Shown here piece after piece: positions 32,043 to 48,309 of a stretch of 64,000 bases of DNA. Within the stretch, counting starts at the first letter, position 1. The number at the start of each line of letters is the position of its first letter. The stretch comes from an uncultured Myxococcales bacterium (GTDB lineage: Bacteria; Myxococcota_A; UBA9042; UBA3505): the NCBI GenBank assembly GCA_964594295.1, contig CAZQPP010000001.1:5039-69038 (forward strand), in the 5' to 3' direction. The notes under the pieces are model-generated. The model was not told the DNA's origin. It worked only from the letters and a program-made list of their open reading frames with translations, and did no database searches. The translations under genes and the position numbers were made by a program.

Positions 32043-35000
32043 ATGAGCGAGCTGGCCGAGCGGTCGCTGTCGATCTTCTTGAGCTACGGGCACGACGAGA
32101 GAGCCGCCGACGCGCTGGAGATCAAGGCCGACCTCGAGGCTCGCGGGCACACGGTGTGGTTCGACCTCGAGAGGCTTCGGGCCGGCCGTGACTGGGCGGG
32201 GTACATCGAGGAGGGGCTCGACGCCTGCGACCTCGTGGTGCTGCTGATGACGCCGCACTCCGTCAGGCGGCGCGAGCGCTCGGAGCCCCACTCCACGGAC
32301 GGCTTCTGCCTGAACGAGCTCGCCAGGGCCCTCGAGCGAAACAAGACGGTCATCCCGGTGATGCTGGCCTGGGTCGACCGGGGGCCGCCGCTCGCCATCA
32401 GCCGCGTCCAGTACCTCGACCTCACCGACTGCGTGCCCATCGACCGGGAAGACGAGCGTTATCGTCGCCGCTTCGCCCGCCTCGTCGACGCCGTCGAGCA
32501 CGGCAACCTCGACATGGGAGGGGCGCAGGCCCGCCTGCAGCGCTACCTGCGGCCGCTGGACTTCAGCCAGGACATGGCCCCGCACATCGCCGGCTTCCGC
32601 GGCCGCAGGTGGGTAGATGCCCTCGTCGACGAGTGGCTCGACGAGCGCCCGGACTCCCAGCTCCTCTGGATCGCGGGTGGGCCGGGCCTCGGCAAGACGG
32701 CCCTGGCCACGCACCTCCAGCGCCGCCACGACGCCGCGGCCTGCCACTTCTGTGTCTTCGGCCACGAGGACAAGGCGAACGCGCGCCGAGCGGTGCTCTC
32801 CATCGCCTACCAGCTCGCGGCAGCCTTCCCGGAGTACTTCGAGAGCCTGAAGGCGGTCCCTCTCGAGGAGGAGCACCTCAAGAACGCGCACACGCTCTTC
32901 GACAACCTGCTGGTGACGCCGCTGCGCCGGATCGAGGCGCCCGATGGGGGGGGGCTGGTGATCCTCGACGCCCTCGACGAGGCCGCATCGGGGGCCCGCA
33001 ACGAGCTTGCAGAGCTCGTGGCATCCGGGTGGCGCCGCCTGCCGTCCTGGCTTCGCCTCATCGTGACGAGCAGGCCCGAGCCGGAGCTGCTGCGGCGCAT
33101 GGGAGGCCTCCGGCGGCCGGTGGAGCTCGTCGGGGAGGATCCGCGCAACCTCGAGGACCTGCGCGAGCTTGTCGTGGCGAACCTTGAGGAGTCGGGCTTG
33201 GACGCGCCTCCCGAGACGGTGGCCCGCATCGTCGAGCACAGCGGCGGCATGTTCCTCTACGCGGTGCAGGTCTTGGAGGAGATCCGCGATGGCGAGATCT
33301 CCGTGCACGAGCCGGAGTCCTTTCCCCGTGGGCTCGAAGGGTACTACGGGCGCTTCTTCGAGCGCCGATTCGCGGATGCGCGAGGATACGACGAGGAGAG
33401 CCGCCCGCTCCTCGAGGCGGTGGTCGCGAGGAGAGCGCCGCTTCCCCTCGGCCTGCTCGCCGAAACCCTCGATGTGCCGCTCTTCGAGCTGTCACGCAGG
33501 CTGCGACAATGCGGCTCGCTCTTCCCGCCGCGGCGGAGCGGTGAGGAGGAGCGGGACTGGACGGTGGAGCCCTTCCACAAGTCGGTTGTGGACTGGCTGA
33601 CCAGCAGCGACGAGCACGGCTACCACCGCGCCGGCGACTTCGCGGTCGACGTCGAGGCGGGCCGGCGTCGGCTCGCAGAGGCGTGCGAGGGGTGGGGGCG
33701 TTTGGAGGGTGCGGCGCGGTGCTACGCCCTGGCGCACGGTGTGCGGCACCAGCTCGAAGCAGGTCGTCTCGAGCAGGCCGCGGAGGCGCTTTGTGACTTC
33801 GGCTGTCACCACCACCGGGTCGAGGCCGGCGGAGCGGACGCGGTGACCGAGACCGTCGGCGACTTCATTCGCACAGAAGAGGCGGCGGCGAAGGCCCGTT
33901 GGGTTGGGCCCCACTGGGACTTGCTCCAAGAGTGGCAGGCCTTCTACAGGGAGCGCTCCCACAGGGCACGCCGGCACGAGAGGCCGGAGCTGGGACTGCT
34001 GCAGGCGGCCTACGCACACGCAGAGCGGAGCCACGTCAGCCGAAGCGCGGAGGGCTGGCTTGCGAAGTGGGGCCCGAGCGCCTCCTGGCTTCGCGCCGTT
34101 CGCAGGCCCCCCGAGGCGCGCGCCAGTGCCTGCCTGATGACGCTCCCGGTTGACGCCGCCTCCGTCGCGCTGGACTCGGCGGGCAAGCGGGCGCTCTCGG
34201 GGGGCTTCGACGGGGTCGTGAAGCTATGGGACCTGGAGACGGGCGCGTGCCTGCTCGCTCTCGAGGGACACACGGAACAGGTGATCGCCGTCGCCTTTCG
34301 GGGAGAGGGCGAAGTGGCGTTGTCGGTGAGCCTGGACGGCACTATCGGGCTCTGGAACCTCGCCTCGGGCACCTGCCTGCAAACCGTCGCCTGGGAGGCG
34401 CGCAGTGCGATCGCTGCCACGACCGACACGGAGGGCGGGCTGGTCTTCTCGGCACATCAGGAGCGGGACGAGCCCGGAAGCTGCGAGACGACCTTGAAGC
34501 TCTGGGAGCTGGAGACCGGCGCCTGCCTGCACACGATGGAGGGGCACGCGGATGCTGTGGATGCCCTCGCGGCGATCCCTCCGCGCGGCCGAGCCGTCTC
34601 GGGTGGCTGGGACGGGAAGCTCAAGCTCTGGGACCTTGAGAGCGGCAACTGCCTCCGCGTCTTGGAGAGCTATGCCCACATGGTGACGTCGGTCGCGGTC
34701 GATCCTTCGGGCCGGTGGGCCGTCTCCGGCAACGATTCCGGAGGATTGGAGCTCTGGGACCTGGAGACGGGAGCTTGTTCGGGCATCTTGGAGAAGCACG
34801 ACTTCTTCGTGGCTGCCGTCGCGTTCGCGCGCACCGGCCAGCGGGTGTTCTCGGTTGACTACCATGGGACGATCAAGGCGTGGGATCTCGAGACCGGCGA
34901 ATGCCTCCGCACCATCGACGGCGACGGGCAATGGTTCCACGGAGGCAGCGGTGTGCCCGTCGCCGCCCTGGACCCGGAAAACCGGCGGGCCGTTACGGGG

Positions 35001-36086
35001 ATCGGCGGAAGGACTCTGAAGGTCTGGGACCTCGAGACGGCCGCACACGCGCCGAGCAGAACGGAGCACGCGGAAGCGGTGTACGCACTTGCTGTCGACG
35101 CCGAGCGAGGGAGGGCTGTCAGCGGGAGCGCCGACCACTCGCTGAAGCTCTGGGATCTCGAGAGCGGTGACTGCTTGAGCACCCTTCGTGGCGTCTACGG
35201 AGCCGGGATCCTGCGGACGCCTTTGGCGTTCGACGCAGCGAGGGGGCGTGTTGTCACCGAGGACGGCCCTCTTGACGGTACGCTTGGGCTCTGGAGCACC
35301 CGGTCAGGCACGCTTCTGCGCACCCTTGAGGAGCACACGGGCCCTGCCAACGACATCGTCTTGCTCGACGAAGGCAAGCGGGCGCTCTCGGCGGGCGGCG
35401 AGACCCTGGAGGTCTGGGATCTTCGGAGCGGTGAGCGCCTGCGCACCCTCGTCGGGCACAGGGCCAGGGTCACCGTCGTCGAGCCGTGGAAGGAGGGCCG
35501 TCGAGCGATCTCGGGAAGCGAGGACGACTCGCTCCGGGTCTGGGACGTGGAGATCGGCGAGTGCCTGCGCACCCTCGAGGGGCACACCGCCTCGGTGACC
35601 GCCCTCGCGTTGTGCCGGCAGGACCGGTGCGCCCTCTCCGGGAGCAGCGACGGCACGCTCAGGCTGTGGGAGCTGGAGACGGGTGACTGCCTGCACGTCC
35701 TCGAAGGGCACACGAGCGGCGTGAACGCCCTGGCCGCCGACCCCACCGGCCGCGTCGCCCTCACGGCCCGCCGCCACGGGGCCATGAGGCAGTGGGACCA
35801 GCGCGCGGGCGCTTGCCTCCGCCTCCTCGAGGGGCACGAGGACTGGGTCAAAGCGGTCGCCCTGGCCCCGGGGGCAGGGCGCGCGGTCTCGGGGAGCACG
35901 GACAACACCTTGAAGGTCTGGGACCTTCACACGGGCGAGTGCCTCGCCACCTGGGTCGCAGAAGGTGCAGTGTTGTGCTGCGCGTGGCCTCCTGGCCGCA
36001 TCGTCGCCGGAACGGGCGCCGGCGAGGTCCTGATCCTCCGGCTCACCGATGCCGGCCCGTGGCGTCCGCGGCCACGAGGCGCGTGA
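32043..36086 (+). CDS. TIR-NACHT(STAND)-WD40 protein
   Basis: ORF-track 1347 aa. AGGAGG lies 3 nt before the ATG. TIR-like N-terminus (SIFLSYGHDE...VVLLMTPHS). NACHT Walker A LWIAGGPGLGKTAL and Walker B GGLVILDALDEA. At least 14 WD40 repeats (GH...WD motifs) follow to the C-terminus. Confidence 0.9.
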   Translation: MSELAERSLSIFLSYGHDERAADALEIKADLEARGHTVWFDLERLRAGRDWAGYIEEGLDACDLVVLLMTPHSVRRRERSEPHSTDGFCLNELARALERNKTVIPVMLAWVDRGPPLAISRVQYLDLTDCVPIDREDERYRRRFARLVDAVEHGNLDMGGAQARLQRYLRPLDFSQDMAPHIAGFRGRRWVDALVDEWLDERPDSQLLWIAGGPGLGKTALATHLQRRHDAAACHFCVFGHEDKANARRAVLSIAYQLAAAFPEYFESLKAVPLEEEHLKNAHTLFDNLLVTPLRRIEAPDGGGLVILDALDEAASGARNELAELVASGWRRLPSWLRLIVTSRPEPELLRRMGGLRRPVELVGEDPRNLEDLRELVVANLEESGLDAPPETVARIVEHSGGMFLYAVQVLEEIRDGEISVHEPESFPRGLEGYYGRFFERRFADARGYDEESRPLLEAVVARRAPLPLGLLAETLDVPLFELSRRLRQCGSLFPPRRSGEEERDWTVEPFHKSVVDWLTSSDEHGYHRAGDFAVDVEAGRRRLAEACEGWGRLEGAARCYALAHGVRHQLEAGRLEQAAEALCDFGCHHHRVEAGGADAVTETVGDFIRTEEAAAKARWVGPHWDLLQEWQAFYRERSHRARRHERPELGLLQAAYAHAERSHVSRSAEGWLAKWGPSASWLRAVRRPPEARASACLMTLPVDAASVALDSAGKRALSGGFDGVVKLWDLETGACLLALEGHTEQVIAVAFRGEGEVALSVSLDGTIGLWNLASGTCLQTVAWEARSAIAATTDTEGGLVFSAHQERDEPGSCETTLKLWELETGACLHTMEGHADAVDALAAIPPRGRAVSGGWDGKLKLWDLESGNCLRVLESYAHMVTSVAVDPSGRWAVSGNDSGGLELWDLETGACSGILEKHDFFVAAVAFARTGQRVFSVDYHGTIKAWDLETGECLRTIDGDGQWFHGGSGVPVAALDPENRRAVTGIGGRTLKVWDLETAAHAPSRTEHAEAVYALAVDAERGRAVSGSADHSLKLWDLESGDCLSTLRGVYGAGILRTPLAFDAARGRVVTEDGPLDGTLGLWSTRSGTLLRTLEEHTGPANDIVLLDEGKRALSAGGETLEVWDLRSGERLRTLVGHRARVTVVEPWKEGRRAISGSEDDSLRVWDVEIGECLRTLEGHTASVTALALCRQDRCALSGSSDGTLRLWELETGDCLHVLEGHTSGVNALAADPTGRVALTARRHGAMRQWDQRAGACLRLLEGHEDWVKAVALAPGAGRAVSGSTDNTLKVWDLHTGECLATWVAEGAVLCCAWPPGRIVAGTGAGEVLILRLTDAGPWRPRPRGA
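33900..36086 (+). repeat. Duplicated ~2-kb module (helical linker plus WD40 array), copy 1; paralogous to 38040-39911
   Basis: Protein segments WQAFYRERSHRARRHERPELGLLQAAYAHAERS...ACLMTL and ...ECLATWVAEGAVLCCAW...GEVLILRLT are mirrored in the second protein (WRSFFQVNAHKMRIHERPEIGLLQAAYAHAEQS...ACLMTL, ...ECLATWVAEHAVLCCAW...GEVLILELT). The nucleotide sequences are visibly similar, e.g. ctgctgcaggcggcctacgc. Confidence 0.6.
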
Positions 36087-36146
36087 GCGCCGGCGACTTC
36101 GGCTGCGCTCTCCCGCGGTAGTCCCCCTTCGAGGGCCTGTGCCATA

Positions 36147-39100
36147 ATGCCGCAGGTGAGGATGCACAGCACCATCACGGACCTGGCAATCACGCGGCGG
36201 ATGCCGGAGCCGATCGCCTGGGCCTGGCACAACGTGCGCGCGGCGCGCGGCGGGCATCCGCACGAGCACTCGGCGCAGCTCATCGGGGCCCTGGACGTCA
36301 CGCTCCGGACGCTGGTGTCGCTGCTCTTGCCGGACTACCTGCGCGGCGCGCCTGATCCGCGCATCGAGGACGAGCTGTCCTGCCTGGGCAGGCCCTCCCT
36401 TGGCGCCTACCGCGACCTGATCCGCTCTCTGCTCTCATCCCTGCGACAGCGACGGGAGCCCGGCCCCTTCTTCCCCGAGGCCTGCGAGTGGTACTTCGAC
36501 GCCAAGGGCAAGCCCACACGCAGCGCTCGGGCCCTCTCCAGCCTCATCGAGCTGCGCAACGAGGACGCGCACGGTCGCGCGCGAACGGCGGCCCAGATGG
36601 CGCCCTTCGCGGACGAGGTCGAGGGGCTCATGGAAGACCTCCTCGCAGGCGCGAGGTGGCTGCGGGGCTACCGGATATTCCGCGTCCTCGACCCCAGGCT
36701 CGTGAGCCGAGCGCGTTTCGGGGGCCGCCTGCAGTTCCTCTACGGCTCAACGCCTCTCGGGCAGACGGAGAGAGCGTCGTGGGCGGCGCATCTCCTGCCC
36801 GACACCGTCTACGTTGCGTCCCCCGATGGAGAGCGGCTGCTCGAGGTCTCCCCCTTCTTCAGCACCCTCAACGACCCGAGCGTCAACGACAGGCGGCTCT
36901 TCCTCTTCGTGGCAGCGCCGAGAGGCAAGTGGCTGACGCTGCGGCACGACCAGAGCGGAGCGACGCAGGAGAAGCTCCTCCCCGCGATCGACGAGAAGGA
37001 GATGCCCTTCTCCACCTGGCTCGAGCGCCGCGAGGAGCTCGAGCCGGCATTGGCCAACTCCACGCCGGCGCCCTTTGCTGCCCTGGACTGGGCCGGCGTC
37101 GGGGATCTGCTCGGCGAGCGCTACCGTCTGCTCGAGCCCTTGGGGCGCGGTGGCATGGCCACGGTCTACCGGGTGGAGGACACCTACTTCGACGAGGAGC
37201 GGGCGCTGAAGGTGCTCACCGAAGAGGCCTCCTCCGACGAGCGCCTGTGCGCGCGCTTCCGGGCCGAGGCCAAGCTCATGCGCCACCTCGGCGAGCATCC
37301 CTACGTCCTCGGTGTCGACGACGTCTCGCCTCTGCCCGACGGGCGCTGGTGCATAGCGATGCCCGTCGTCGAAGGCGGCACGCTCCAAGACCAGCTCCAA
37401 GCAGGGCCCGTCGCACCCGAGCGTGTCGCGAGGTGGGCCCGCCAGGCCCTCGAGGCCCTTGACCACCTCCACGAGAACCACGTCTGGCATCGCGACATCA
37501 AGCCCTCGAACATCCTGCTCGACAACTTGGACGACACCATCCGCCTCGCGGACTTCGGGATCGCCCGCGAGGCGGGCTCCACGCTGCGCCTCACGCGAGC
37601 AACGGAGCGAATCGGGACGCAGGCCTACATGGCGCCCGAGCTCCTCGTCGAAGGTGGGGAGCCGGGGCCGGCGACGGACCGCTTCAGCCTGGCCGTCACC
37701 CTGCACGAGCTTGTGACCGGTGCGCTGCCGAAGGGTACGCCCGGAGAGGGGATCGGGGGCGAGCTGGGTTCGTTGATCCGTGCGTTGGGGCACGAGGAGC
37801 CGGCACGCCGGCTCGCTGCCGCGATCGGCGAGCAGTCTCCGCTCCCCCGAATCGAGCCCCCAAAGCGCCGCTCTGACTCAGATCACGCGTCGAAGCAGCT
37901 CGGATTGGAGATGGCCGTCGAGACGCTGACCGACTTCGGGCATCACTACGGTCGCCTGAAGGACGGTGGAGAAGACCCGGTAGCCGAGGTCTTCGCGGCT
38001 TTCGAGCGAGCCAGGGCAGCTGTCTCGGAGCTGGGCTGGGACGGGCCGCAGCTGGATGAGCTCGAGGAATGGCGGAGCTTCTTCCAGGTGAATGCGCACA
38101 AGATGCGAATTCACGAGCGACCCGAGATCGGCCTGCTGCAGGCGGCCTACGCCCACGCGGAGCAGAGCCCTCTCAGCCATGCCGCCCTGCACTGGCTGCG
38201 CAAGCACGGGCCGGATGCGCTGTGGCTCCGTGCGATCCGCCGGCCGCGCGAGGAGAAGCGCGGCGCGTGCCTGATGACCCTGGGGCGGCACACCGGCCGG
38301 GTGCAGGCAGTGGCCCTGGACCCCGAGGGTTGTCACGCGATCTCGCAGGGCGCGGACAAGGCAATCAGGCTCTGGGACCTGCAGACGGGCGCCTGCCTGC
38401 GTAGCCTCAAGAAGCACACCGCCAAGGTGGAGTCCGTCGCGCTGGGCCCCGGAGGGCGGCGTCTGCTCTGCGGCAACCGTGACAACACGCTCAAGGTGTG
38501 GAACCTGCAGACCGGCAAGCGTATCTGTACCCTGAGGGGCCACGGCGCAACCGTGAGGGCCGTTGCGTTGGACCGCGACGGCCGGCGGGCGGTCTCGGGG
38601 GGCGAGGACGAGAAGCTCAAGGTGTGGGACCTGGAGACGGGCAAGTGCCTGCTCACCTTCGAGGCGCAAGCTCGCTTCGTGCGGGCGGTCGCGCTGAGCT
38701 ACGAGGCCGGTCGCGCGGTCTCGGTGAGCGACGACGGGAAGCTCGACGTGTGGGACCTGGAGACGGGCTCACGCGCGCGTGCCCACTGGGTGCACGTCGG
38801 CTACATGCGCCCCGTCGCCTTGGACTGCGCGGGCCGTCGTGTGCTCACGGCGGGCAGGGACGGTGTGCTCGACCTCGTTGAGATCGAGACCGGGGACATC
38901 CTGCGCAGCATCGAGATCGGCGACGCGGAGCCGGACTCCGTGGCGCTGGACTCGCAGGGCCGGCGCGCGGTCCTGGGGCACGATGACGGCACGCTGAATC
39001 TGTGGGACCTCGAGACGGCAGCGCAGCCGCGCTCTTCGGAGGGGCACCTCGAGGAGGTGACCTCCGTCGTGCTGGATCCCGAGCGCCGGCGAGCCGTCTC

Positions 39101-39911
39101 CGGGAGCTCTGATGAGACGCTGATGGTCTGGGACCTGGAGACAGGAGGGCGCCTCGACACGCTCGCTGGACACACCAAGGGAGTAACGGCTCTCGCCATC
39201 GAGCCCAAGGGCACGTGCCTGGTATCGGGGAGCGATGACGGGACGCTCAAGGTGTGGGACCTGGAAGCCGGTCAGCGTGTGCGTACCCTCGAGCGTCACA
39301 CGGGCGCCGTGAAGAGCGTTGTCGTGGACCCCGAGGGCCGGCAAGTGGTTTCGGGGAGCAGCGACAACACGCTGAGGGTCTGGGACCTGGGGACGGGAGA
39401 GCTGCTTCGCACCCTGCGGGAGCACGCCGCTCCGGTGACAGGCCTCTCCCTGGACCTCGAGAGGCGCCATGTGCTCTCCGGGAGCATGGACGAGACCATC
39501 GTCCTGTGGGACCTGGCGACATGCGCGAACCTGCGCAGGCTGCGCGGCCACGCGGGTGGAGTGACGGCTCTTGCGTTGCACCCGCTGCGCCGGCAAGCCG
39601 TCTCCGGGGGGCGCGACGCCGCGTTGAGGTTGTGGGACCTTGAGGCAGGCGAGTGTGTACGGACCTTCGGGGGACACACGGGATACGTGTCGTCCGTGGC
39701 TCTGGACGCGCCCGGCGACCGACTCCTCTCGGGAAGCTACGACGGGACTCTGAGGGTATGGAACCTGCAAACCGGCGAATGCCTCGCCACCTGGGTCGCC
39801 GAGCACGCGGTGCTCTGTTGCGCCTGGAATGGCGGCCCCATCGTCGCCGGCACCGCCGCTGGCGAGGTCCTCATTCTCGAGCTCACCCCGCCCGGGCCCT
39901 GGTCACCTTGA
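36147..39911 (+). CDS. HEPN-like (RNEDAH) N-terminal domain, active Ser/Thr kinase, then a WD40 beta-propeller
   Basis: ORF-track 1254 aa. LIELRNEDAHG carries the R-x4-H motif. Kinase motifs LGRGGMATVYRV, HRDIKPSNILL, DFGIA and MAPELL. The linker plus WD40 part is paralogous to the C-terminal half of the TIR-NACHT-WD40 protein. Confidence 0.85.
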   Translation: MPQVRMHSTITDLAITRRMPEPIAWAWHNVRAARGGHPHEHSAQLIGALDVTLRTLVSLLLPDYLRGAPDPRIEDELSCLGRPSLGAYRDLIRSLLSSLRQRREPGPFFPEACEWYFDAKGKPTRSARALSSLIELRNEDAHGRARTAAQMAPFADEVEGLMEDLLAGARWLRGYRIFRVLDPRLVSRARFGGRLQFLYGSTPLGQTERASWAAHLLPDTVYVASPDGERLLEVSPFFSTLNDPSVNDRRLFLFVAAPRGKWLTLRHDQSGATQEKLLPAIDEKEMPFSTWLERREELEPALANSTPAPFAALDWAGVGDLLGERYRLLEPLGRGGMATVYRVEDTYFDEERALKVLTEEASSDERLCARFRAEAKLMRHLGEHPYVLGVDDVSPLPDGRWCIAMPVVEGGTLQDQLQAGPVAPERVARWARQALEALDHLHENHVWHRDIKPSNILLDNLDDTIRLADFGIAREAGSTLRLTRATERIGTQAYMAPELLVEGGEPGPATDRFSLAVTLHELVTGALPKGTPGEGIGGELGSLIRALGHEEPARRLAAAIGEQSPLPRIEPPKRRSDSDHASKQLGLEMAVETLTDFGHHYGRLKDGGEDPVAEVFAAFERARAAVSELGWDGPQLDELEEWRSFFQVNAHKMRIHERPEIGLLQAAYAHAEQSPLSHAALHWLRKHGPDALWLRAIRRPREEKRGACLMTLGRHTGRVQAVALDPEGCHAISQGADKAIRLWDLQTGACLRSLKKHTAKVESVALGPGGRRLLCGNRDNTLKVWNLQTGKRICTLRGHGATVRAVALDRDGRRAVSGGEDEKLKVWDLETGKCLLTFEAQARFVRAVALSYEAGRAVSVSDDGKLDVWDLETGSRARAHWVHVGYMRPVALDCAGRRVLTAGRDGVLDLVEIETGDILRSIEIGDAEPDSVALDSQGRRAVLGHDDGTLNLWDLETAAQPRSSEGHLEEVTSVVLDPERRRAVSGSSDETLMVWDLETGGRLDTLAGHTKGVTALAIEPKGTCLVSGSDDGTLKVWDLEAGQRVRTLERHTGAVKSVVVDPEGRQVVSGSSDNTLRVWDLGTGELLRTLREHAAPVTGLSLDLERRHVLSGSMDETIVLWDLATCANLRRLRGHAGGVTALALHPLRRQAVSGGRDAALRLWDLEAGECVRTFGGHTGYVSSVALDAPGDRLLSGSYDGTLRVWNLQTGECLATWVAEHAVLCCAWNGGPIVAGTAAGEVLILELTPPGPWSP
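38040..39911 (+). repeat. Duplicated linker plus WD40 module, copy 2
   Basis: See copy 1 (33900-36086). Confidence 0.6.
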
Positions 39912-39984: not shown

Positions 39985-40668
39985 ATGTCGCCCCGCCAGA
40001 AGTTCCCCCGCATCTACCACGTCCCCTGGAGCGCCGCCGTCGCCGCGGACGACCGGCGGCACAAGGACCTCTCCTTCTTCGAGGGAGAGGAGGTCGTGGT
40101 CACCGAGAAGCTCGACGGCGAGAACACCACGATCTACCCCGACGGCGCCTGCCACGCGCGCTCCTTGAGCAGCGGACCCCACCCGTCGCGAACGTGGGTG
40201 AGACGCTTCGCTGCGGAGATCGGGCACCATATCCCCGAGGGCTGGCGGGTCTGCGGCGAGAACATGTTCGCCGAGCACAGCATCCGCTACGAGGAGCTGC
40301 CCTCCTACTTCCTCGCCTTCTCGGTCGTTGACGAGGATGACACGGTCCTCGGGTGGGAGGACATGGAGGCCGTCTTGCGGGGTCTCGCCGAGGCCTCCGG
40401 TCGCGAGGTGCCGCACACGCCGGTCCTGTACCGGGGGGTGTTCGACGAAGAGGCGATAGCCGCGTTGTGGACCGGGCGCTCGGCATTCGGTCCGGTGGGT
40501 GAGGGCTACGTCATCCGGCTCGCCCGCGCCTTCCCGGTCTCTCAGATCACCGGTGGGGCAATGGCGAAGCACGTGCGGCGCGGCCACGTTCAGCCCGACA
40601 CCTCGCACTGGATGAGCGCTCCCGTGCGTCCGAACGGTCTCAGGGAGGATGTCGATGGACAGACGTGA
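39985..40668 (+). CDS. ATP-dependent RNA-ligase-like nucleotidyltransferase (small Rnl-type)
   Basis: ORF-track 227 aa. Motif I TEKLDGENT (KxDG, the adenylylated Lys). Motif IV-like GEGYVIRLA. Motif V-like AKHVRRGH. Confidence 0.6.
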   Translation: MSPRQKFPRIYHVPWSAAVAADDRRHKDLSFFEGEEVVVTEKLDGENTTIYPDGACHARSLSSGPHPSRTWVRRFAAEIGHHIPEGWRVCGENMFAEHSIRYEELPSYFLAFSVVDEDDTVLGWEDMEAVLRGLAEASGREVPHTPVLYRGVFDEEAIAALWTGRSAFGPVGEGYVIRLARAFPVSQITGGAMAKHVRRGHVQPDTSHWMSAPVRPNGLREDVDGQT

Positions 40669-40954
40669 CTTCAGCGCCGTCATCGGGCAGCTCCGCGCCA
40701 CGGGGAGGGCGCAGATGCGATTCGAGGGCGGCTCGATGCGCCCGCTGCTCGAGTCGGGGCGGGTATACACCTTCGAGTTTGCCGAGCGCTACGAGGTAGG
40801 GGACATGGTCTTCTGCCGCGTGGACGGCAGGTACATCGACGCCCACCTGGTGCGCGAGGTAGACGCCGAGAAGGGATACTTGATCGGCAACAACCTGGGA
40901 GGGAAGCCGGACGGGTGGACCTGGGAGGTCTTCGGGCGGATCGTGGACGCTTGA
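40649..40954 (+). CDS. Small protein with a LexA/S24-peptidase-like signature (tentative)
   Basis: ORF-track 101 aa, overlapping the RNA ligase gene by 20 bp. EGGSMRPLL resembles the GxSMxP Ser-nucleophile motif of S24/S26 peptidases. A downstream Lys (AEKGYLIGNN) could be the general base. Confidence 0.35.
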   Translation: MSMDRRDFSAVIGQLRATGRAQMRFEGGSMRPLLESGRVYTFEFAERYEVGDMVFCRVDGRYIDAHLVREVDAEKGYLIGNNLGGKPDGWTWEVFGRIVDA

Positions 40955-42189
40955 GCCTCCGTGCGCGCCCCCCGCGGCTGGTGCGGCCGGGAGGTAGTGG
41001 TACGGTAGCGCCGAATCCCGCGGAGGACGAAGTGGGCGGAAAGTGGGCTATCTCGGAGCTTTCGGTCGGCCAGGAGGTCGAGGCGACCTTCTGGGCGAAC
41101 CCGGTCAAGGAGTCGCGTCACCGCTACCGGGCTACCCATCTCGACGGGAAGCGTGCCCCGAAGGTGGTGCTCTCGAGCGATCGGCGCATCGCGCCCGGCG
41201 TGCCGTGCATCGTGCGGATCACCACGATCGCGAAGACGGCGCGGCCGGATCGCGGGCACATCGAGGTGGAGCTGGTTCACGCCCTCGACCTCCCCCTCGA
41301 AGGGGTCTACGTCGACCCCGTCGTGAAGACCAAGCTGCAGGTCTTGCTCGAGAGCGGGCTGAACATCCTGCTCGACGGGCCGCAGGGCTGCGGAAAGACG
41401 GTCATCGCGCGCGCGATCGCAGACACCCTCGGCATGAGGTTCGTCTTCTTCAACTGCAGCTCGGTCATCGAGCCGACGGACTTCCTCGCGACCATCCAGG
41501 TCCGAGCCTCGGAGGGGGGGCACCCGGTCACGGACTTCGTGAAGACCGATGTCCTGCGTGCGCTGGAGGAGGCCTCCGAGAACGACGGCGAGCGCTACCT
41601 GGTGTTCTTCGACGAGCTCAACCGCTGCCGGGAGAGCGCCCGCAATGCCCTGATGCCCGCCCTCGACGCTACCCGGAGAGTGTTCAACCCCATCGCCAAC
41701 GACTTCCTGGCGATCCCGCAGAACGTGCAGTTCATCGCCGCGGTCAACAGCGGGCGAGAGTTCAGCGGCACCTTCGGCGTGGATCCTGCACAGCTCGACC
41801 GCTTCGCACCCATCGCCATGGACTACCCGCCGCCGGCGGAGGAGCGGAAGCTGCTCGCCAAGCGTCACCCCGAGCTGAGCAGGCCTACTATCGAGTTTGC
41901 CGTCGAGGTCGCCCACGAGATCCGCTCCGCCCCTGACCTCGACCAGGGCCTGAGCGTGCGGGCCACCGACGAGGCGTGCCTCTACCTGAAGCACCCCCTC
42001 ATCGCGAGCAGGAGGGAGAGCATGATGGCCGAGGTGCTCAAGTCCTCCTACTGCGGCCGTTTCTTCGGGCGCTGGAACGACAGCTCCTCGGACGCCGGCG
42101 TGGTCTGGGTGATCATCGAGCGCAAGCTCGAGGAGCGCGCTCGGGCGAAGCACAGGCGCAGCGCGAAGGCGAAGGCCCGCCGCTCTTAG
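40915..42189 (+). CDS. MoxR-like AAA+ ATPase (AAA_5 type)
   Basis: ORF-track 424 aa; the N-terminal ~45 aa may be an over-extension. Walker A LLDGPQGCGKTV. Walker B YLVFFDELNR. Sensor FIAAVN. Lys-rich tail. Confidence 0.8.
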   Translation: MDLGGLRADRGRLSLRARPPRLVRPGGSGTVAPNPAEDEVGGKWAISELSVGQEVEATFWANPVKESRHRYRATHLDGKRAPKVVLSSDRRIAPGVPCIVRITTIAKTARPDRGHIEVELVHALDLPLEGVYVDPVVKTKLQVLLESGLNILLDGPQGCGKTVIARAIADTLGMRFVFFNCSSVIEPTDFLATIQVRASEGGHPVTDFVKTDVLRALEEASENDGERYLVFFDELNRCRESARNALMPALDATRRVFNPIANDFLAIPQNVQFIAAVNSGREFSGTFGVDPAQLDRFAPIAMDYPPPAEERKLLAKRHPELSRPTIEFAVEVAHEIRSAPDLDQGLSVRATDEACLYLKHPLIASRRESMMAEVLKSSYCGRFFGRWNDSSSDAGVVWVIIERKLEERARAKHRRSAKAKARRS

Positions 42190-42879
42190 TAGCGCCCCCT
42201 CGAATTGAGGAGGCGGGCGCAGAGGCCTCGCAACAGGCCCCTGCGCCCGCCATCGAGCTCGCGCGGCAGCGGCATGAGCCCCCGCGTCCGAGCGGCGCGA
42301 TGAACTGCGCTGTGCGGGCGTGGGGTTTCGCTGACGTTGCGAGCCCGAATCGGGGAGAGAGACCCGCCTCCCGGTGGGAGCGGCGTGGTGTGCACGTCCC
42401 GTCACCGCGACCGGGCCGTGGGCCCGGTGAGCCGGTGTCGCTGCCTTGGGGAGACCCCTTGGCTGCGTACGGGAGTGAACGAGAGGGCGGAATCGACGTC
42501 GCGGTCAAGGAGGCGGCGGATGCCGGCCAAAGGTGCTTCGTTGGCGGGGCAGGCGTCTCGCGAGCGAGAAGCCATTTCCGCGGGCGCTTCGCTTGTCGCG
42601 AAACGCATGGTTGGTGGTGTGAATGGCACCGGCGCCGCACCTCGACCGCTCCCACCTGAGAGGTCGCCGCGTTGGTGCGGCCCTTCGGCGCTCCTGGTCT
42701 TGACGCCGCGGCCGGGGGCTCGGCCGTGGCGGCGCCAGGACGCCCACGGCTCCCGCCGTTCGCCCTAGGGCCCGGGGGCGGGAGACGCCGCGCTCCGGCA
42801 TCACGCCGGAACACTCCTTTTCGTCGTCGGCAGAAGCCGTCCGCCCGTCCGCGAGGCGCGGTACACGCCGCTGCCGCGT

Positions 42880-42905
42880 GGTGTTTCGCGAGCGAAACAC
42901 CTTTT
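42880..42905 (+). terminator. Terminator-like hairpin: 10-bp perfect stem GGTGTTTCGC/GCGAAACACC followed by TTTT
   Basis: Read directly: ggtgtttcgc-ga-gcgaaacacc then tttt. It lies ~700 bp downstream of the MoxR-like gene, inside a 900-bp non-coding gap. Confidence 0.35.
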
Positions 42906-43080: not shown

Positions 43081-46000
43081 CTACCTCCCCAGCGAAGCCC
43101 CCACGAGGCGGACGACGCAGCGCCCGAAGGCCGAGACCGCTGAGCTCATGTCGTCGTCGAGGATCTCCACGTGGTGCGGGAAGGTCACGTGGTCGAGGCG
43201 GCGAAGCGCGACCTGCACGCACAAGAAGCCGTGACGGCGGGTGAGCTGGGCGACGAGGTTTCGGAGCGCCTCCACCGTGCACTCGGTGGGAGAGCCGTCG
43301 CTCACCATGATCAGCAGGCGCCGGCTCCGCTTGGAGCTCATGGCCCTCTTCGCCGCCGCGAAGAGGGCCCCCGCGTCGTTGTTGCCGCCGCCGACCTCGA
43401 GTGAGGCCGCCGCGCAGCGTCGCCCGCCTCCAGCCTCGAAGAGGGTCTGGTCGTCGAAGCCGTAGAAGCGGGTATCGATCCCGGGGAGCCCGCGAGTGGC
43501 CGCCGACAGCAACGTGGCGAAGAGCTTCGCCCTCTCGTGGTTCTCGTTGATTGCCATCGAGCCCGAGCAGTCCACGAGCGTGCCGATGTGCAGGTCGTTT
43601 CTCAGCACGCGCTCGGAGGCGCAGAGCATCCTTGGGTCGGAGCGGAGCAGGGCGGCGCGGATGCGCCCGCGGTCGACGCTTCGGCCCTGCACACGCCCGC
43701 CTTCCCGGGTGTATCCGATGCCCATGCGCACGAAGAAGCGACGCATGCGCCTCGCGAGAGGCGCCACGACGCGCTCGTGCTCCGCGTAGAGCCTGGGGTC
43801 GAAGGGCACGACGACCCTCTCGACAAGCTCGGCGAAGTCGGTGTCTTCGCCCAGGTTGATCCCACGCACCACGAGAGACGAGTCCGGCCCGTCCTGCTCG
43901 CTCCGGGAGACCACGGCCACGCCGCCGGCGGGGCGCAGCAGCTCGTCGGCGGCCTCTTGCAGATCCTCCTGCGTCATGCCCTCGCTGGCGGCGTTGAGCT
44001 CGGTCACCTCCACCCTCTCGATCGCGCCGGGACCAAGAGGAGCGAGCAGCGCGGTCTCGTCGCCGAAGATCGCCTTGAGCTCCCGTGCCACTCCGAGGAG
44101 CTGCTCCATCGACGAGCCCCGGAAGCTGCGCCCGAACAGAGTGAGCGCCTGCGCGACGCGCTCGTCCCCGTGGCGGTTGCCGAGCCCCATGCGCAGCGCG
44201 GTCACGAACCTCGCGAAGCTGTTCTCCGATCCCTCCAGCGAGCGCAACACCGAGCCCGAGCGGAGGCGGACGCTGTCTGGCGCCCTGCCGACCTCCAGCG
44301 CAGTGGCGGTGAGCACCTCGAAGCAACGCCATCCCAGGCTGGCGGTGAGGCTCCTCGCATCCACCTCGCGCCGCGAGTGGCGGAATGCGTAGGCCGCGAG
44401 CACCTTGAGGGCGTTCCCGTGCTCCTCGTCGCGGGCCCTCATGTTGCGCTCGAGGTGCTCGTCGGCCACCAGGTTCAGCAGGTCCCCGAGGCCTTCGTCG
44501 AGAGCCTTCGCCCAAACCTCCGCGCTGCGCGGCCCTCCGTGGTAGACGTGGTGGCCGAGCTCGTGGAGGACGAGCGCGCGCACCACCGTTTCGCCGTTGG
44601 GCTCGACGCGGAGCAGGGGCAGTGGGTTGACCTGGATGCAGCGCGATCCCATCCGCGCGTAACCCAGCTCGCCGCCGGCCAGCATCTCGATCTCCATCTG
44701 CGCCCCCGTGAGCAAGCGGGCGTTGCGCTCGGCCTCGAGCCACACGCGGGCCAGCTCCCGGAGCCGAGGGTGCGGCGCTCGAGGGGCCCGCCGCAACGCG
44801 GAGAGCGCCGCTCCCTGCGCGCTCTCGGAGGGGGTGGTGCCGGCGATCGCGGCCAGGAGCTCGGTCCTGACGTCGGCCTCTTCGGGCGAGCCGACCAGCG
44901 CGTCGACGAGCTCGCAGGTGATCTCGTCTCGGCCGGCAGCGAGGACGGCAGCGGTCACGCGCCTGAGAGCCTCCGGCTCGGCCAGGCGGACAATCCCCTC
45001 CCACAAGGAGTCCCAGCCGACCGGGCTTCTGCCCAGGCCGGCGTATGGCAGCAGCACCGGCAAGCCCTCGGCTCGCCCCTTCGAGAGCAGGGCCGCGGCC
45101 GCTTCGACCCGCAGCTCCTCGAGCCGCTCAGTGCCGGTGTGCAGGAAGGCTGCGAGGGCGTCGAGCACGATGTCGGGGCGCCAGCTCACCCTGTCGACGA
45201 GCCACGCGACCGCCCGGCCCCAGGCGCTGTGGTGAGGCGAGACCGCGAGCGCGCACGCCAACCTCTCGGCGGAGGCGCCCAGGTCTTTCAGGCGGCGCCA
45301 GTCCTCGGCGAGGAACCAGGACGTCTCGCTCGGCGCGACCGCGGCCCGCAAGGCGTGCTCCAGGGCCCCGCTGTCGCCGCGCGCCATCAGGGCGAGGGCT
45401 ACGCAAAAGCGCACCTCGGGGAGCCCCGACGTGTGGGCGGCCAGCGCCCGGCAACGATCCAGGGCGGCTCCATCCGGCCAGTCGGGGATGGTGAGCGCGA
45501 TCTCCCGGACGCAGGGCAGAGCGGGCACGCTCTCCAGAGCCGCCGCGACGCTGGCCGCTCCAGGCTCGCCCAGGGCGAGCAGAGAGCGCGCCGCCGCCGT
45601 GGCGACGTCGGCGAAGGCGCTGCGGCAGAGCTTCTCCAGGCGCTTCGCGCTCCGGCTCGTCCTCGCCTCCTCGAGCAGGCTCAGGTCCGACGTGCCGGTC
45701 ACCACCTTGGTGACGGAGGCTTTGCCGAGGCCGTGCGAAGAGACCCACCGCGACAGAGCCACGCGGACGTCCATCGACATCTCGCCGATGAGGCGGAGCA
45801 CGTTGTTCCTGCGGGCGTCGATGGCCTCCACCTCCACCCGGCCGCGGTGGAAGTCGACCAACATCTCGCTTGCGTGGACCCTGAGCGCCTCGCACCTCTG
45901 CTCCATGTTGAGGCCGCGGCTGGGAGGGAGAAGCTCGGCCAGCTCGGATCTACCCTCGTCCAGGTCTCCAAGGGTGAGCACGTCGAAGAGCAGCTCGATG

Positions 46001-48309
46001 GTGCCCGCAGGCGCCAGCTCTGCGAGGTCTCGGTGCTCGCGCCAGCGCCGGTGGCGAACGGTGGCGGAGCAGCCCCGCCAGACGATGGCGCAGAGCCTGT
46101 CGGACTCCAGCCCCAGCGCCCACTTCAGCATCCCGAGGATTCCCCCCTCCCATGAATCGGCTGCCAGCGCGAACAACGAGAGGTTCGCGGACCACCGGTG
46201 CAGCAGGGCGTTCGCGAAAAGAGAGGGCTGCGGAAGCCCGGCCGCGGCTTCCACGACGCAGCGTTCCAGCGTCGCGTCGAAGCTCTCACCGTCGATCTCG
46301 TATCGGCTGAAGAGACGATCGACCTCGTCAGGAGGGTCGTCAGCGAGGATCAAGGCCTTGCAGATCCGGACGTCGCCGACAGGAGCACCCGAGCGTGCGT
46401 CGAGGGCCGCGGTGAGGCCTCGGGAGGGCCTCTCGGGGAGCATCTCCACCACGAAGCCAAGGTCGTGCTCCGGGCAGGCGGCGATCCTGTCGTGCTCTCC
46501 TTGCTTCAGCTCGTGGGGCGGCTGCCCGCGTGCCGGCCGCGGGGAGGTCTCCTTCCGTGGCACCGCCAGCTTCGCCCAGTCGGCGACGACCGGGTCCGGG
46601 TGCCCGAGGAGCTCGCTCATCAGGGCGTGGGCGACGGGAAAAGGGAAGCCGGGCGCGACAGGCTCCATCGACGCCAGGGCGACGATCTCCTCCTTCGAGA
46701 GCCTCTTGAGAGCAGAGAGCCAGCTGGGCTTCCGGTATCGCCGGCCGAGCCAGCCGAGGAGGGCCGGTGCGAGGGAGCTGTGCTCGCGCCCCGGGGCTCC
46801 GAGGACAACCGGCAGGACTTCCCGGAGGGCAAAGCCCTCTCCTTCGAGCCAGGAGCCGACAGCCTCGCTGAGCGCCGCCGCTCGCCTCTCGGAGAATCGG
46901 CCCTCTGTGGAGGCGTGGGCGAGGAGAGCCTTCACGAGGCCCATGCGCTCGCCGGCGGGGCGGAGACGAAGCACCGCGAGCTCCTCGAGACGGTCTAACG
47001 GGAGCGCCGCGGCCAGGACCGTCACGTGAGCCGCCGTCGTCGTCCGCGGCTCCTCGAGCAGCGCCCGGATGATCTCGCTGAAGGCCGCCTCTCCCGGGCC
47101 CCGCTGGGGCAGGGAGCAGAGCGCGTCGAGCCCTGTCGGGCCCGCGTGCAGCGACTCGACAACGCGTTGCTTCCCCCAGGTCCTCAGCAGGCGAACGAGG
47201 CAGGAGCCCGAGAGCAAGCGGGAGATCCCGGCGGCGACCGGCAGGTCGAGGCAGCCGTCCTCCCTGTCCGCGATGCCGCAGCCGATCACCGCGGGGAGAT
47301 CCTGCCATCGCTCGGGTCTGCGCAGATCGACCCCGGCAAGAGTCGCAGCGGCCGCCTTTCGGTCGCCGACGGGGATGCCGGGATGAGCGAGGAGCCCGGG
47401 CAGGATCACGCTGGAGAGCGCGAGGGCGTCGGTGGGCCAGCGGGGCTTGCCGAGGAGCACGGAGGCCACGCTCAGGGCAACGCTCCAAGGGGCGAAGCGA
47501 ACGGCTCGCCTGCTCTCGAGGTCCTCACGCAGGGCCGCGAAGAAACGGCGCGTCAGCGGCGAGTCCATCGCGCCGGCGCCGTCGGGGCCGGGGGGGCAGA
47601 AGAGCCCTACGATCCGGTCGAGGTCGTCCTCCTGAGCGCGTGCCGCCTCGACGGAGCGCTCGATCCCGGCGGGGGTGTCCTCCCCCGAGGGCGCCGCGGT
47701 GGCGCGCCCGCGAAGAGGCGCGAGGAAGTCGGCCAGCCGGACCGACTCGAGCACCTCGACTATGAGGCGCCCCGCGACCTCGCGGTCGAGCTCCCCGGCT
47801 TCGACGCCCTCGAGGAGCAGGCGAACGCTCGCCGGCGAGAGCGGGCCCCACTGGTTGAGGCGCCGCTCCGCCAGGTCGGCGCTCTCGGGGTCAGCGAGGG
47901 CGTGCGCCGCGAGAGAGCTCATCGCCTTGGTAGCTTGCCGCTGCTCCACGGAGAGGACGGCGAGGCGCGCTACCGGGCGTGGGTGAAAGAGGGCATGGCA
48001 CAAGCGCCCCGGCTCCTCGCTGGAGGAGCGCATGAGCGAGTATGCGGCGCTCTCCACAACCGCGTCCTCCCTGTCGTCGAGGGCCCGGACGATCCAGCGG
48101 AATGCGTCCGTCCCCCTGGCGCCGGCAAGGACCTTCACCGCGGCGGCGCGCACCGCCGCGTTCGGATGCTCCAGCGCCGGCTCCAGCACGCCCCAGAACG
48201 GGAGGCGTTGCCTCGGGCCAAGGCGTCCGGCCTCCCGCAGGAGCTCCTCGAGATCGGGATGATCGAGGTTCCCGCCGGCGAGGAGGCCGAAGAGCAGGGT
48301 GTCTCGCAT
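43081..48309 (-). CDS. Large HEAT-repeat protein with a C-terminal HExxH metallopeptidase-like domain and vWA domain (extended DUF2201-like architecture)
   Basis: ORF-track 1742 aa, ATG start. N-terminal HEAT-like repeats (NAAVRAAAVKVLAG...). HExxH in RALVLHELGHHVYH. MIDAS in GTLVDCSGSMA near the C-terminus. Confidence 0.8.
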   Translation of the reverse strand: MRDTLLFGLLAGGNLDHPDLEELLREAGRLGPRQRLPFWGVLEPALEHPNAAVRAAAVKVLAGARGTDAFRWIVRALDDREDAVVESAAYSLMRSSSEEPGRLCHALFHPRPVARLAVLSVEQRQATKAMSSLAAHALADPESADLAERRLNQWGPLSPASVRLLLEGVEAGELDREVAGRLIVEVLESVRLADFLAPLRGRATAAPSGEDTPAGIERSVEAARAQEDDLDRIVGLFCPPGPDGAGAMDSPLTRRFFAALREDLESRRAVRFAPWSVALSVASVLLGKPRWPTDALALSSVILPGLLAHPGIPVGDRKAAAATLAGVDLRRPERWQDLPAVIGCGIADREDGCLDLPVAAGISRLLSGSCLVRLLRTWGKQRVVESLHAGPTGLDALCSLPQRGPGEAAFSEIIRALLEEPRTTTAAHVTVLAAALPLDRLEELAVLRLRPAGERMGLVKALLAHASTEGRFSERRAAALSEAVGSWLEGEGFALREVLPVVLGAPGREHSSLAPALLGWLGRRYRKPSWLSALKRLSKEEIVALASMEPVAPGFPFPVAHALMSELLGHPDPVVADWAKLAVPRKETSPRPARGQPPHELKQGEHDRIAACPEHDLGFVVEMLPERPSRGLTAALDARSGAPVGDVRICKALILADDPPDEVDRLFSRYEIDGESFDATLERCVVEAAAGLPQPSLFANALLHRWSANLSLFALAADSWEGGILGMLKWALGLESDRLCAIVWRGCSATVRHRRWREHRDLAELAPAGTIELLFDVLTLGDLDEGRSELAELLPPSRGLNMEQRCEALRVHASEMLVDFHRGRVEVEAIDARRNNVLRLIGEMSMDVRVALSRWVSSHGLGKASVTKVVTGTSDLSLLEEARTSRSAKRLEKLCRSAFADVATAAARSLLALGEPGAASVAAALESVPALPCVREIALTIPDWPDGAALDRCRALAAHTSGLPEVRFCVALALMARGDSGALEHALRAAVAPSETSWFLAEDWRRLKDLGASAERLACALAVSPHHSAWGRAVAWLVDRVSWRPDIVLDALAAFLHTGTERLEELRVEAAAALLSKGRAEGLPVLLPYAGLGRSPVGWDSLWEGIVRLAEPEALRRVTAAVLAAGRDEITCELVDALVGSPEEADVRTELLAAIAGTTPSESAQGAALSALRRAPRAPHPRLRELARVWLEAERNARLLTGAQMEIEMLAGGELGYARMGSRCIQVNPLPLLRVEPNGETVVRALVLHELGHHVYHGGPRSAEVWAKALDEGLGDLLNLVADEHLERNMRARDEEHGNALKVLAAYAFRHSRREVDARSLTASLGWRCFEVLTATALEVGRAPDSVRLRSGSVLRSLEGSENSFARFVTALRMGLGNRHGDERVAQALTLFGRSFRGSSMEQLLGVARELKAIFGDETALLAPLGPGAIERVEVTELNAASEGMTQEDLQEAADELLRPAGGVAVVSRSEQDGPDSSLVVRGINLGEDTDFAELVERVVVPFDPRLYAEHERVVAPLARRMRRFFVRMGIGYTREGGRVQGRSVDRGRIRAALLRSDPRMLCASERVLRNDLHIGTLVDCSGSMAINENHERAKLFATLLSAATRGLPGIDTRFYGFDDQTLFEAGGGRRCAAASLEVGGGNNDAGALFAAAKRAMSSKRSRRLLIMVSDGSPTECTVEALRNLVAQLTRRHGFLCVQVALRRLDHVTFPHHVEILDDDMSSAVSAFGRCVVRLVGASLGR

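Follow-up and report, generated by a model that had tools for sequence, protein, structure and literature searches.

A minimal RNA ligase, a small S24/S26-fold gene, and a MoxR-class ATPase on a Myxococcales contig: probably separate units side by side rather than one repair module

In the CbbQ-CbbO, NorQ-NorD, and CoxD-CoxE pairs, an ATPase of the AAA_5 type and a partner carrying a von Willebrand factor A (vWA) domain are encoded by tightly linked genes. A related pair in jumbo phages joins a MoxR ATPase to a vWA protein that also bears a zincin-like (HExxH) metallopeptidase module (PMC7824862), and ternary conflict systems combine an ATPase of the bpMoxR type with vWA and beta-propeller proteins (PMC7159879). 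Among RNA ligases, those of Naegleria gruberi (NgrRnl) and Deinococcus radiodurans (DraRnl), together with T4 Rnl2 and TbREL1, share an adenylyltransferase fold, motifs I, III, IIIa, IV, and V, and the Pfam family RNA_ligase (PF09414), while heal-and-seal systems of RNA repair include T4 Pnkp with Rnl1, Pnkp/Hen1, and the RlaP-associated operons. Here, we analyzed a 64-kb stretch of DNA (the window) from an uncultured Myxococcales bacterium, in which genes encoding an RNA ligase sharing the fold, motifs, and Pfam family listed above, a small S24-like protein, and a MoxR-class ATPase follow one another on one strand, and the gene for a giant HEAT-HExxH-vWA protein converges on them. An earlier note on this DNA proposed that they form a single RNA-repair or counter-defense module regulated by the MoxR/vWA pair. 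The comparison of homologous loci points instead to separate units that happen to lie side by side on one strand, in a region rich in conflict-type genes, a reading to which we assign a probability of about 0.7.

The ATPase matched AAA_5 (E = 1.7e-14; 54.5 bits against a cut-off of 22), carried the Walker A motif GPQGCGKT and the Walker B motif FFDELN, and found its best PDB sequence matches in midasin and NorQ. Homologs of about 375 aa, 62 to 71% identical to it, were found in Minicystis, Kofleriaceae, Deltaproteobacteria, and Planctomycetota as well as in many soil and water metagenomes. Neighborhoods were compared at 84 such ATPase loci, comprising 80 metagenomic loci and four from a genome/metagenome look-up (L009-L012, L093-L172). 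A homolog of the giant was present in 52 of the 80 metagenomic loci and in all four of the look-up loci. Its gene lay upstream of the ATPase gene in 55 of 84 loci, being adjacent and co-directional in 48 and, in a further 6, within 3 kb on the upstream side; the rest were mostly loci too short to tell. On the Minicystis and Planctomycetota contigs, for example, a giant homolog of about 1,700 aa was encoded just upstream of the ATPase. Neither the ligase nor the small gene occurred in any of the 84 loci, which speaks against the proposed single module, and none of the 84 had the giant and the ATPase genes in convergent orientation. Clustering of neighboring genes, made noisy by shadow open reading frames (ORFs), returned no recurrent third partner of the pair.

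The giant combines N-terminal HEAT repeats (HEAT_2, E = 3.6e-8) with a C-terminal region of 600 aa that matches VWA_CoxE (E = 2.2e-5). Although giants are only about 33% identical overall, the motifs LHELGHH and DEHLER and the metal ion-dependent adhesion site (MIDAS) DxSxS...GGxNND...SDGxPTEC of the C-terminal module were invariant in four distant homologs. Relative to the known MoxR-vWA pairs, the partner is far larger and has long HEAT-repeat regions, and the ATPase is extended by a conserved N-terminal domain of about 105 aa for which Pfam has no match. The bpMoxR systems are also distinct, as the window ATPase scored 17.3 bits against PF20030, below the cut-off of 27, and no linked beta-propeller partner is conserved in its homologous loci. 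Judged from conserved gene order and domain content, the giant is the conserved partner of the ATPase, the two forming a putative MoxR/vWA chaperone-co-chaperone pair, in agreement with the earlier suggestion that the vWA-HExxH protein partners the MoxR protein. Since both window proteins align over their full length to their homologs, both are intact, despite lying convergently and about 890 nt apart. The canonical giant-ATPase operon is broken by rearrangement in the window, with the ligase and the small gene now in the place usually held by the giant, and for this reason the arrangement looked unusual. The conservation of the ATPase (62 to 71% across Myxococcota, Planctomycetota, and metagenomes) is unusually high for a conflict system.

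Seen from the ligase, the result was the same. A total of 166 ligase loci were compared, 80 of them viral and 86 cellular, the latter consisting of 80 genomic loci (out of at least 588 found in the genome scan) and six further places; neighboring genes were clustered and cluster representatives then annotated. A MoxR-class ATPase was encoded nearby in only two of the 166 loci (L049 and L089) and in none of the viral ones, and a hidden Markov model (HMM) of the small family found members in none of the 86 cellular and in one of the 80 viral loci (L281). Hence, conservation of the three-gene neighborhood was not borne out, and neither MoxR nor S24 proteins are among the recurrent partners of the ligase family. 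The coordinates of the genes and of other features of the window are given in Table 1.

Table 1. Features of the 64-kb window (positions counted from its first nucleotide)
Feature	Position	Strand	Description
HSP70-like gene, then two small genes and two giants	1156-11403	-	HSP70-like protein 722 aa; giants 1300 and 1117 aa, no Pfam match
Second MoxR-like pair	16313-21150	-	990-aa AAA_5 protein (18178-21150), then 622-aa CobT_C-type vWA protein (16313-18181)
Tubulin_2 + Macro + Ser/Thr kinase protein	26806-31824	-	1672 aa
Two tandem WD40 giants	32043-39911	+	directly upstream of the ligase gene
RNA ligase	39985-40668	+	227 aa; PF09414
Small S24/S26-fold gene	40655-40954	+	99 aa; alternative ATG at 40649
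MoxR-class AAA+ ATPase	41032-42189	+	385 aa; AAA_5; long ORF spans 40915-42189
G+C-rich hairpin (inverted repeat I4)	42212-42251	+	17-nt arms, 94% complementary; 6-nt loop
HEAT-HExxH-vWA giant	43081-48309	-	1742 aa; HEAT_2, VWA_CoxE
DnaE-like gene (PHP, pol III alpha, finger domains)	48342-50870	+	842 aa; divergent orientation to the HEAT-HExxH-vWA giant
Two adjacent GmrSD-like (DUF262-type) genes	54543-58534	+	ORF overlap about 160 nt; such genes are typical of type IV restriction

As the window is about 70% G+C, ORFs are long by chance in all frames, and real genes were told apart from shadow ORFs by their G+C content at each codon position. The coding signature of this genome, roughly 0.65/0.45/0.89 at positions 1/2/3, was shown by the ligase, small, and ATPase ORFs and was absent from the antisense ORFs. 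The frame with high third-position G+C (GC3) changes at about 40650 and returns at about 41030. Consistent with this, the small ORF (40649-40954) had values of 0.63/0.44/0.89, as in the flanking genes, with the frame switching exactly at both borders, which identifies it as coding. A chance ORF of a high-G+C genome was ruled out by this signature together with 173 homologs and a confidently predicted fold. Its start is likely the second ATG, at 40655, which is preceded by GGGAGG 6 nt upstream and was chosen by public gene callers (P0241), giving a 14-nt overlap with the end of the ligase gene (stop codon 40666-40668). Concerning the ATPase, the long ORF opens with 39 codons (40915-41031) that had a GC3 of just 0.64 and no coding signature, and a public protein 100% identical to it (P0121) is 385 aa long; its start is therefore placed at the GTG at 41032, with a GGAGGA box 4 nt to the 5' side. 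With these corrected starts, the small and ATPase genes are 77 nt apart and do not overlap. The 101-aa overlapping ORF with the GGSMRPLL motif and the MoxR AAA+ protein (GPQGCGKT, DELN) of the earlier note are thus both present, the former being coding, but the small protein is probably 99 aa and its gene does not run into that of the ATPase, which begins at 41032 rather than at 40915.

Several observations weigh against the separation of these genes into independent units. They share a strand and are closely spaced, with 73 nt from the stop codon of the upstream kinase-WD40 gene to the ligase start, the 14-nt overlap, and the 77-nt gap; no terminator-like element was found between the ligase, the small gene, and the ATPase, the first strong hairpin lying after the ATPase gene, where it begins 23 nt past the stop codon. 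Given the shared strand, the short gaps, and the position of this hairpin, co-transcription of the three genes by read-through is plausible, and the 14-nt overlap suggests that the ligase and small genes are expressed together, whatever their functional relation. The hairpin is a possible transcript end; a consensus terminator scan did not call it, as it is not followed by a T run, and both promoter and terminator consensus scans were uninformative in this G+C-rich sequence. The two ligase loci near MoxR-class genes count on the same side. In L049 (1075-11308), from a Myxococcota metagenome-assembled genome of 55% G+C, a homolog of the AAA protein (52% identical) is followed on one strand by a 1,314-aa HExxH-vWA protein, and the ligase lies 1.7 kb away in divergent orientation, with DUF2490 and DUF2846-like genes in between. 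In L089 (6789-13017), from Abditibacterium, the ligase gene sits between a classical MoxR gene of the AAA_3 type and a putative DUF58-like gene, the latter read from sequence. By our own rough estimate, which was not computed, two MoxR-near cases among 86 cellular ligase loci are somewhat above what uniform random placement would give.

The single-module proposal, in which the MoxR/vWA pair would load or regulate the ligase, perhaps on a ribonucleoprotein client, draws on this shared strand and short spacing without a hairpin before the end of the ATPase gene, and on the two MoxR-near ligase loci. vWA/MIDAS domains are, moreover, found in RNA-repair scaffolds such as Ro60/TROVE. We nevertheless regard it as very unlikely. 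Besides the empty counts at the 84 ATPase loci and the two in 166 at the ligase loci, the strong conservation of the ATPase extends across phyla, with the giant kept as its neighbor irrespective of context. In L049, the other strand carries the minimal ligase, an HD + AAA_33 kinase gene, and an Rnl2-type ligase with T4_Rnl2_C, that is, a complete heal-and-seal operon, and the two genes between it and the divergent MoxR/vWA pair split the locus into units. Furthermore, no protein of the window matched TROVE, and a search for Rfam RNAs, Y RNA included, found none in it. L049 and L089 differ in ATPase subfamily, orientation, and spacing, and we take them as a weak, unexplained signal that leaves a small residual doubt rather than as support for a module. 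A more general version, that the proximity of minimal ligases to MoxR/vWA genes in the window, L049, and L089 is not accidental and reflects chaperone-coupled repair of damaged RNA-protein complexes in some lineages, would have a loose likeness in Ro60, which combines a HEAT-like ring with a vWA domain in RNA quality control; we give it only the slimmest of chances.

Candidates for other kinds of partnership were also rejected. Of the four proteins, only the ATPase was matched by PADLOC defense models, weakly and at the P-loop level, and membership in a known defense system was rejected, there being no match to the ligase, the small protein, or the giant. A noncoding RNA partner (Y RNA or tRNA-like) was likewise dismissed, there being no Rfam match, and the sole tRNA call lies far away inside a long ORF. 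In L089, a large membrane protein gene follows the DUF58-like gene, the ligase apparently having been inserted into a MoxR operon. The intergenic space of 890 nt between the ATPase and the giant holds two copies of a hairpin element (42552-42577 and 42880-42905; 77% identical), GGYGTYTCG-CGAG-CGARAMRCC followed by T-rich bases, and these could be terminators or else represent a small repeat element.

The 227-aa nucleotidyltransferase with TEKLDGENT and EGYVIR described in the earlier note is present and intact. It matched PF09414 (E = 1.6e-29; 103.7 bits against a cut-off of 27) over residues 35-187, with the motifs TEKLDGEN (Lys42), CGEN (Glu92), EGYVIR (Glu173), and AKHVR (Lys195). Residues K42, D44, G45, E46, and N47 of motif I were invariant in 30 of 30 aligned homologs, and across the same 30-sequence alignment so were G91-E92 of motif III, F109/F112 of motif IIIa, E173-G-x-V-x-R178 of motif IV, and K195-x-V-R198 of motif V. 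More than 1,800 homologs were found, most of them 210 to 225 aa long and about 50% identical, occurring in both cells and phages; some of those in Bacillus and Aneurinibacillus are annotated as "RNA ligase family protein", and the window ligase also matched the RNA ligase families phrog_34045 and phrog_24030. A PDB sequence search with the ligase itself gave no matches, and its family profile gave marginal ones only (best E = 0.048), the profile alignment putting Lys42, Glu92, and Glu173 on K170, E227, and E312 of NgrRnl. An AlphaFold2 (AF2) model built from the alignment had a single domain and a mean predicted local distance difference test score (pLDDT) of 91.9. When this model was compared with the PDB using Foldseek, ranks 1 to 13 were all the catalytic domain of NgrRnl (E about 1e-6; best match E = 3.6e-7, with about 21% identity over 183 columns), followed by TbREL1, T4 Rnl2, and archaeal Rnl3, while the DNA ligases of African swine fever virus and Chlorella virus and LigD had weaker E-values than the RNA ligases. 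Together with the PF09414 match, this ranking groups the protein with RNA ligases and not with DNA ligases or capping enzymes, as the earlier note had supposed.

Unlike Rnl5, the window ligase has no N-terminal domain, and unlike Rnl2, no C-terminal domain: T4_Rnl2_C was not matched, and the NCBIfam model DRB0094 reached 12.9 bits against a cut-off of 151. Strictly speaking, it is therefore neither an Rnl5 nor an Rnl2 enzyme, since the appended N- or C-terminal domain is absent. What it has is the catalytic domain with short family-specific extensions at the N terminus (KYPRTxHLPWS...) and the C terminus (HVQTDxHWM...). Sequence and model together mark it as a putative stand-alone RNA ligase, intact and consisting of the nucleotidyltransferase domain only, with Lys42 the predicted AMP acceptor. 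A literature search found no biochemical study of this minimal subfamily. By analogy with characterized Rnl enzymes, the protein would join 5'-phosphate and 3'-hydroxyl RNA ends: Lys42 would be adenylylated by ATP, the AMP would pass to the 5'-phosphate end, and attack by the 3'-OH would seal the break.

Elsewhere, this ligase family is frequently found beside enzymes that heal RNA ends. In 25 Firmicutes loci (Brevibacillus, Paenibacillus, and Saccharibacillus), the start of the ligase gene is overlapped by a gene encoding an AAA_33 kinase and HD phosphohydrolase, whereas in about 49 loci, mostly from Streptomyces and other actinobacteria (within L014-L087), the ligase and the AAA_33 kinase domain are joined in a single 574-aa ORF (e.g., L076, 718-2442). 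In 39 of these fusion loci, the next gene encodes a 964-aa protein (e.g., L032, 9672-12566) composed of an MJ1316 cyclic-end recognition domain, an EEP phosphatase, a 2H phosphoesterase, and a poly(A)-polymerase-like nucleotidyltransferase. The actinobacterial ligase-kinase ORF with this protein has the look of an elaborate and apparently uncharacterized RNA end-repair system. In both of the other Myxococcota ligase loci (L049 and L075), the HD + AAA_33 gene is directly downstream and overlaps the 3' end of the ligase gene. RlaP is present in one ligase locus (L004), and a phage ligase locus (L179) encodes a PNK-HAD protein and an HNH-ligase fusion. On Abditibacteriota-type contigs, a PIN-domain gene of the RNase type overlaps the 3' end of the ligase gene (L088, 7905-9084; L333, 8001-9105; L334, 865-1969), and the pairing of a PIN RNA cutter with a ligase as RNA joiner is a possible toxin/antidote arrangement. 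The same 3'-overlap slot is thus occupied by the HD-kinase in Myxococcota, by PIN in Abditibacteriota, and by the S24-like gene in the window.

Because the family's neighbors are of the kinds that classically heal RNA ends for a sealing ligase, an RNA-repair role is well founded at the family level from gene context, and the relatives of the window ligase are located in operons akin to the described heal-and-seal systems. The window departs from these systems in having the S24-like gene in the slot at the 3' end of the ligase and no adjacent healing gene. Its neighbors are the WD40 proteins upstream and the S24-like and AAA+ genes downstream, and no kinase, phosphoesterase, RlaP, or methyltransferase was found next to it. 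The RNA-repair part of the earlier note is therefore upheld by the neighborhoods of the family elsewhere, but not by any healing partner in the window itself. The enzymes that heal ends for this ligase may be encoded at another place in the genome, or its substrates may already present 3'-OH and 5'-phosphate ends.

The small protein alone remained below threshold against Peptidase_S24 (PF00717; 15.6 bits against a cut-off of 23.3), and a word-index homolog search found only the protein itself. In an exhaustive HMMER search, it had 173 relatives at E < 1e-3, of which 30 were at E < 1e-10, typically 95 to 110 aa long and 35 to 50% identical. Among 40 family members, 34 matched PF00717 (best E = 8.3e-11), which agrees with the S24-like assignment made earlier, as does the fold of the model described below. 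The family (proteins P0242-P0391) has the consensus GNSMxP...VGDIVFCKV.G....H.I....YLIGNN.G..NGWT..IYGKV, in which Ser27 (GGSM in the window) is invariant and His64 nearly so; the residue after the His is K, R, or L, and is Leu in the window protein. The AF2 model (pLDDT 92.7) has one 11-residue helix (residues 6-16) ahead of a beta domain, and its top Foldseek matches were all S24/S26 proteins, namely UmuD', the C-domains of LexA and lambda cI, and SipA (template modeling (TM) scores of 0.56 to 0.66; E = 6e-3 and weaker). With the UmuD', LexA, and lambda cI C-domains, it shares the beta-rich fold and the GxSM nucleophile motif.

Searched against the PDB, the profile of the small family had its best sequence match in human SEC11A/C (E = 8e-4), aligning the family Ser with SGSMEP and the family His with the histidine of vHRV, which we take to be the catalytic Ser and His of that enzyme. 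The position of the general-base His in SEC11A/C (S26B) hence aligns with the His of the small protein, and the Lys general base of S24 and S26A is absent from it, His standing at the base position. Further differences from S24/S26 enzymes are its length of 99 aa, its stand-alone form, and the lack of any membrane anchor on reading the sequence. No helix-turn-helix or other N-terminal DNA-binding domain was matched, and the region of the cleavage site (Ala-Gly or Cys-Gly) is absent. The model thus indicates an S24/S26 fold with a predicted Sec11-like (S26B-type) Ser/His pair, and the probable role of the protein is that of a small serine peptidase or of a binding module resembling UmuD'. One relative (P0267) is fused to a NADAR domain.

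One point in favor of a functional link between the small gene and the ligase is their 14-nt overlap, the Shine-Dalgarno sequence of the former lying within the latter. The two might be a cassette from the phage accessory pool, independent of the ATPase, in which the small protein controls or targets the ligase or in which the two counter RNA-cleaving and protein-based immune effectors, respectively. Such a cassette is also favored by the abundance of both families in viral contigs, which hold 215 relatives of the small protein, many on contigs of 200 to 540 kb, and by the other small partners that take the ligase 3' slot elsewhere (PIN in L088, L333, and L334; HD-kinase in L049 and L075). Moreover, among 80 viral loci of the small gene (L173-L252), five encode a ligase of this family on the same strand and 0.7 to 4.5 kb away (L179, L183, L193, and L195/L196), and the two families also meet in L281. 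However, random placement would allow up to 13.5 of 80 if each contig carried one ligase, so that five are not evidence of linkage, and order and spacing were unlike those of the window in every phage case. No gene partner is conserved across the small family in phage loci, where the large clusters stem from one group of related phages, and the small gene is missing from every cellular ligase locus and from 79 of the 80 viral ones. We therefore consider a functional cassette unlikely. The small gene is not a regular partner of the ligase family, and its pairing with the ligase is so far unique to this organism; it is real and conserved, yet with regard to the ligase it is an orphan. In the reading as separate units, translation of the small gene, whose family is known mainly from large phage genomes, would be coupled to that of the ligase.

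Upstream of the ligase, the first WD40 giant has TIR, NACHT-like (NPHP3_N), and WD40 regions (1,347 aa), and the second joins an N-terminal region without assignment to a Ser/Thr kinase (PD-T4-6-like) and WD40 repeats (1,254 aa). Their TIR, NACHT-like, and PD-T4-6-like kinase domains are typical of defense proteins, and with the same strand and the 73 nt between the kinase-WD40 stop and the ligase start, the ligase, with or without the small gene, could be an accessory that repairs self RNA after an immune response, within a five-gene transcription unit. This seems highly improbable to us, as homologs of the TIR-NACHT region or of the kinase-WD40 N-terminal region occurred in none of the ligase, ATPase, or small-gene loci examined, where generic kinase domains were all that matched the window WD40 proteins. 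Nor are TIR effectors known to cleave RNA in a way that would call for a ligase. By eye, the two giants resemble each other in the linkers that connect the enzymatic domain to the WD40 repeats.

The window as a whole is crowded with conflict-type genes (Table 1). The HSP70-like locus may be an HSP70-centered conflict system; a tRNA-Ser call by ARAGORN (5606-5675) inside its 1,300-aa ORF is in all likelihood a false positive. At 842 aa, the DnaE-like protein is shorter than a typical pol III alpha subunit. The gene encoding the Tubulin_2-Macro-kinase protein adjoins an AAA_5 gene (25303-26736) and a gene for a 483-aa protein with no Pfam match (23898-25349), and the locus resembles tubulin-containing conflict systems (PMC7159879). 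Several of the conflict-type genes of the window recall the NTP-dependent conflict systems described in the same work (PMC7159879).

Elsewhere, the ATPase and the giant form a tight two-gene operon (giant, then ATPase); in the reading as separate units, they have been left convergent in the window by rearrangement. By analogy with MoxR-vWA pairs, the MIDAS site of the vWA domain would hold a client that the ATPase ring remodels.

Had it held, the single-module reading would have pointed to RNA repair under the control of a chaperone, in a system of a new kind. More probably, on the evidence, a rearrangement has brought the ligase next to a chaperone pair to which it is unrelated, and the ligase itself is an unremarkable representative of minimal RNA ligases, a large family whose biochemistry is unstudied. 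Two by-products are worth keeping, namely a family of about 100 aa with an S24/S26 fold and a Ser/His pair that is widespread in large phages, and the strongly conserved pair of an ATPase and a 1,700-aa HEAT-zincin-vWA protein in Myxococcota and Planctomycetota. With its clear, lineage-specific healing partners, the minimal ligase family itself is a good candidate for biochemical study.

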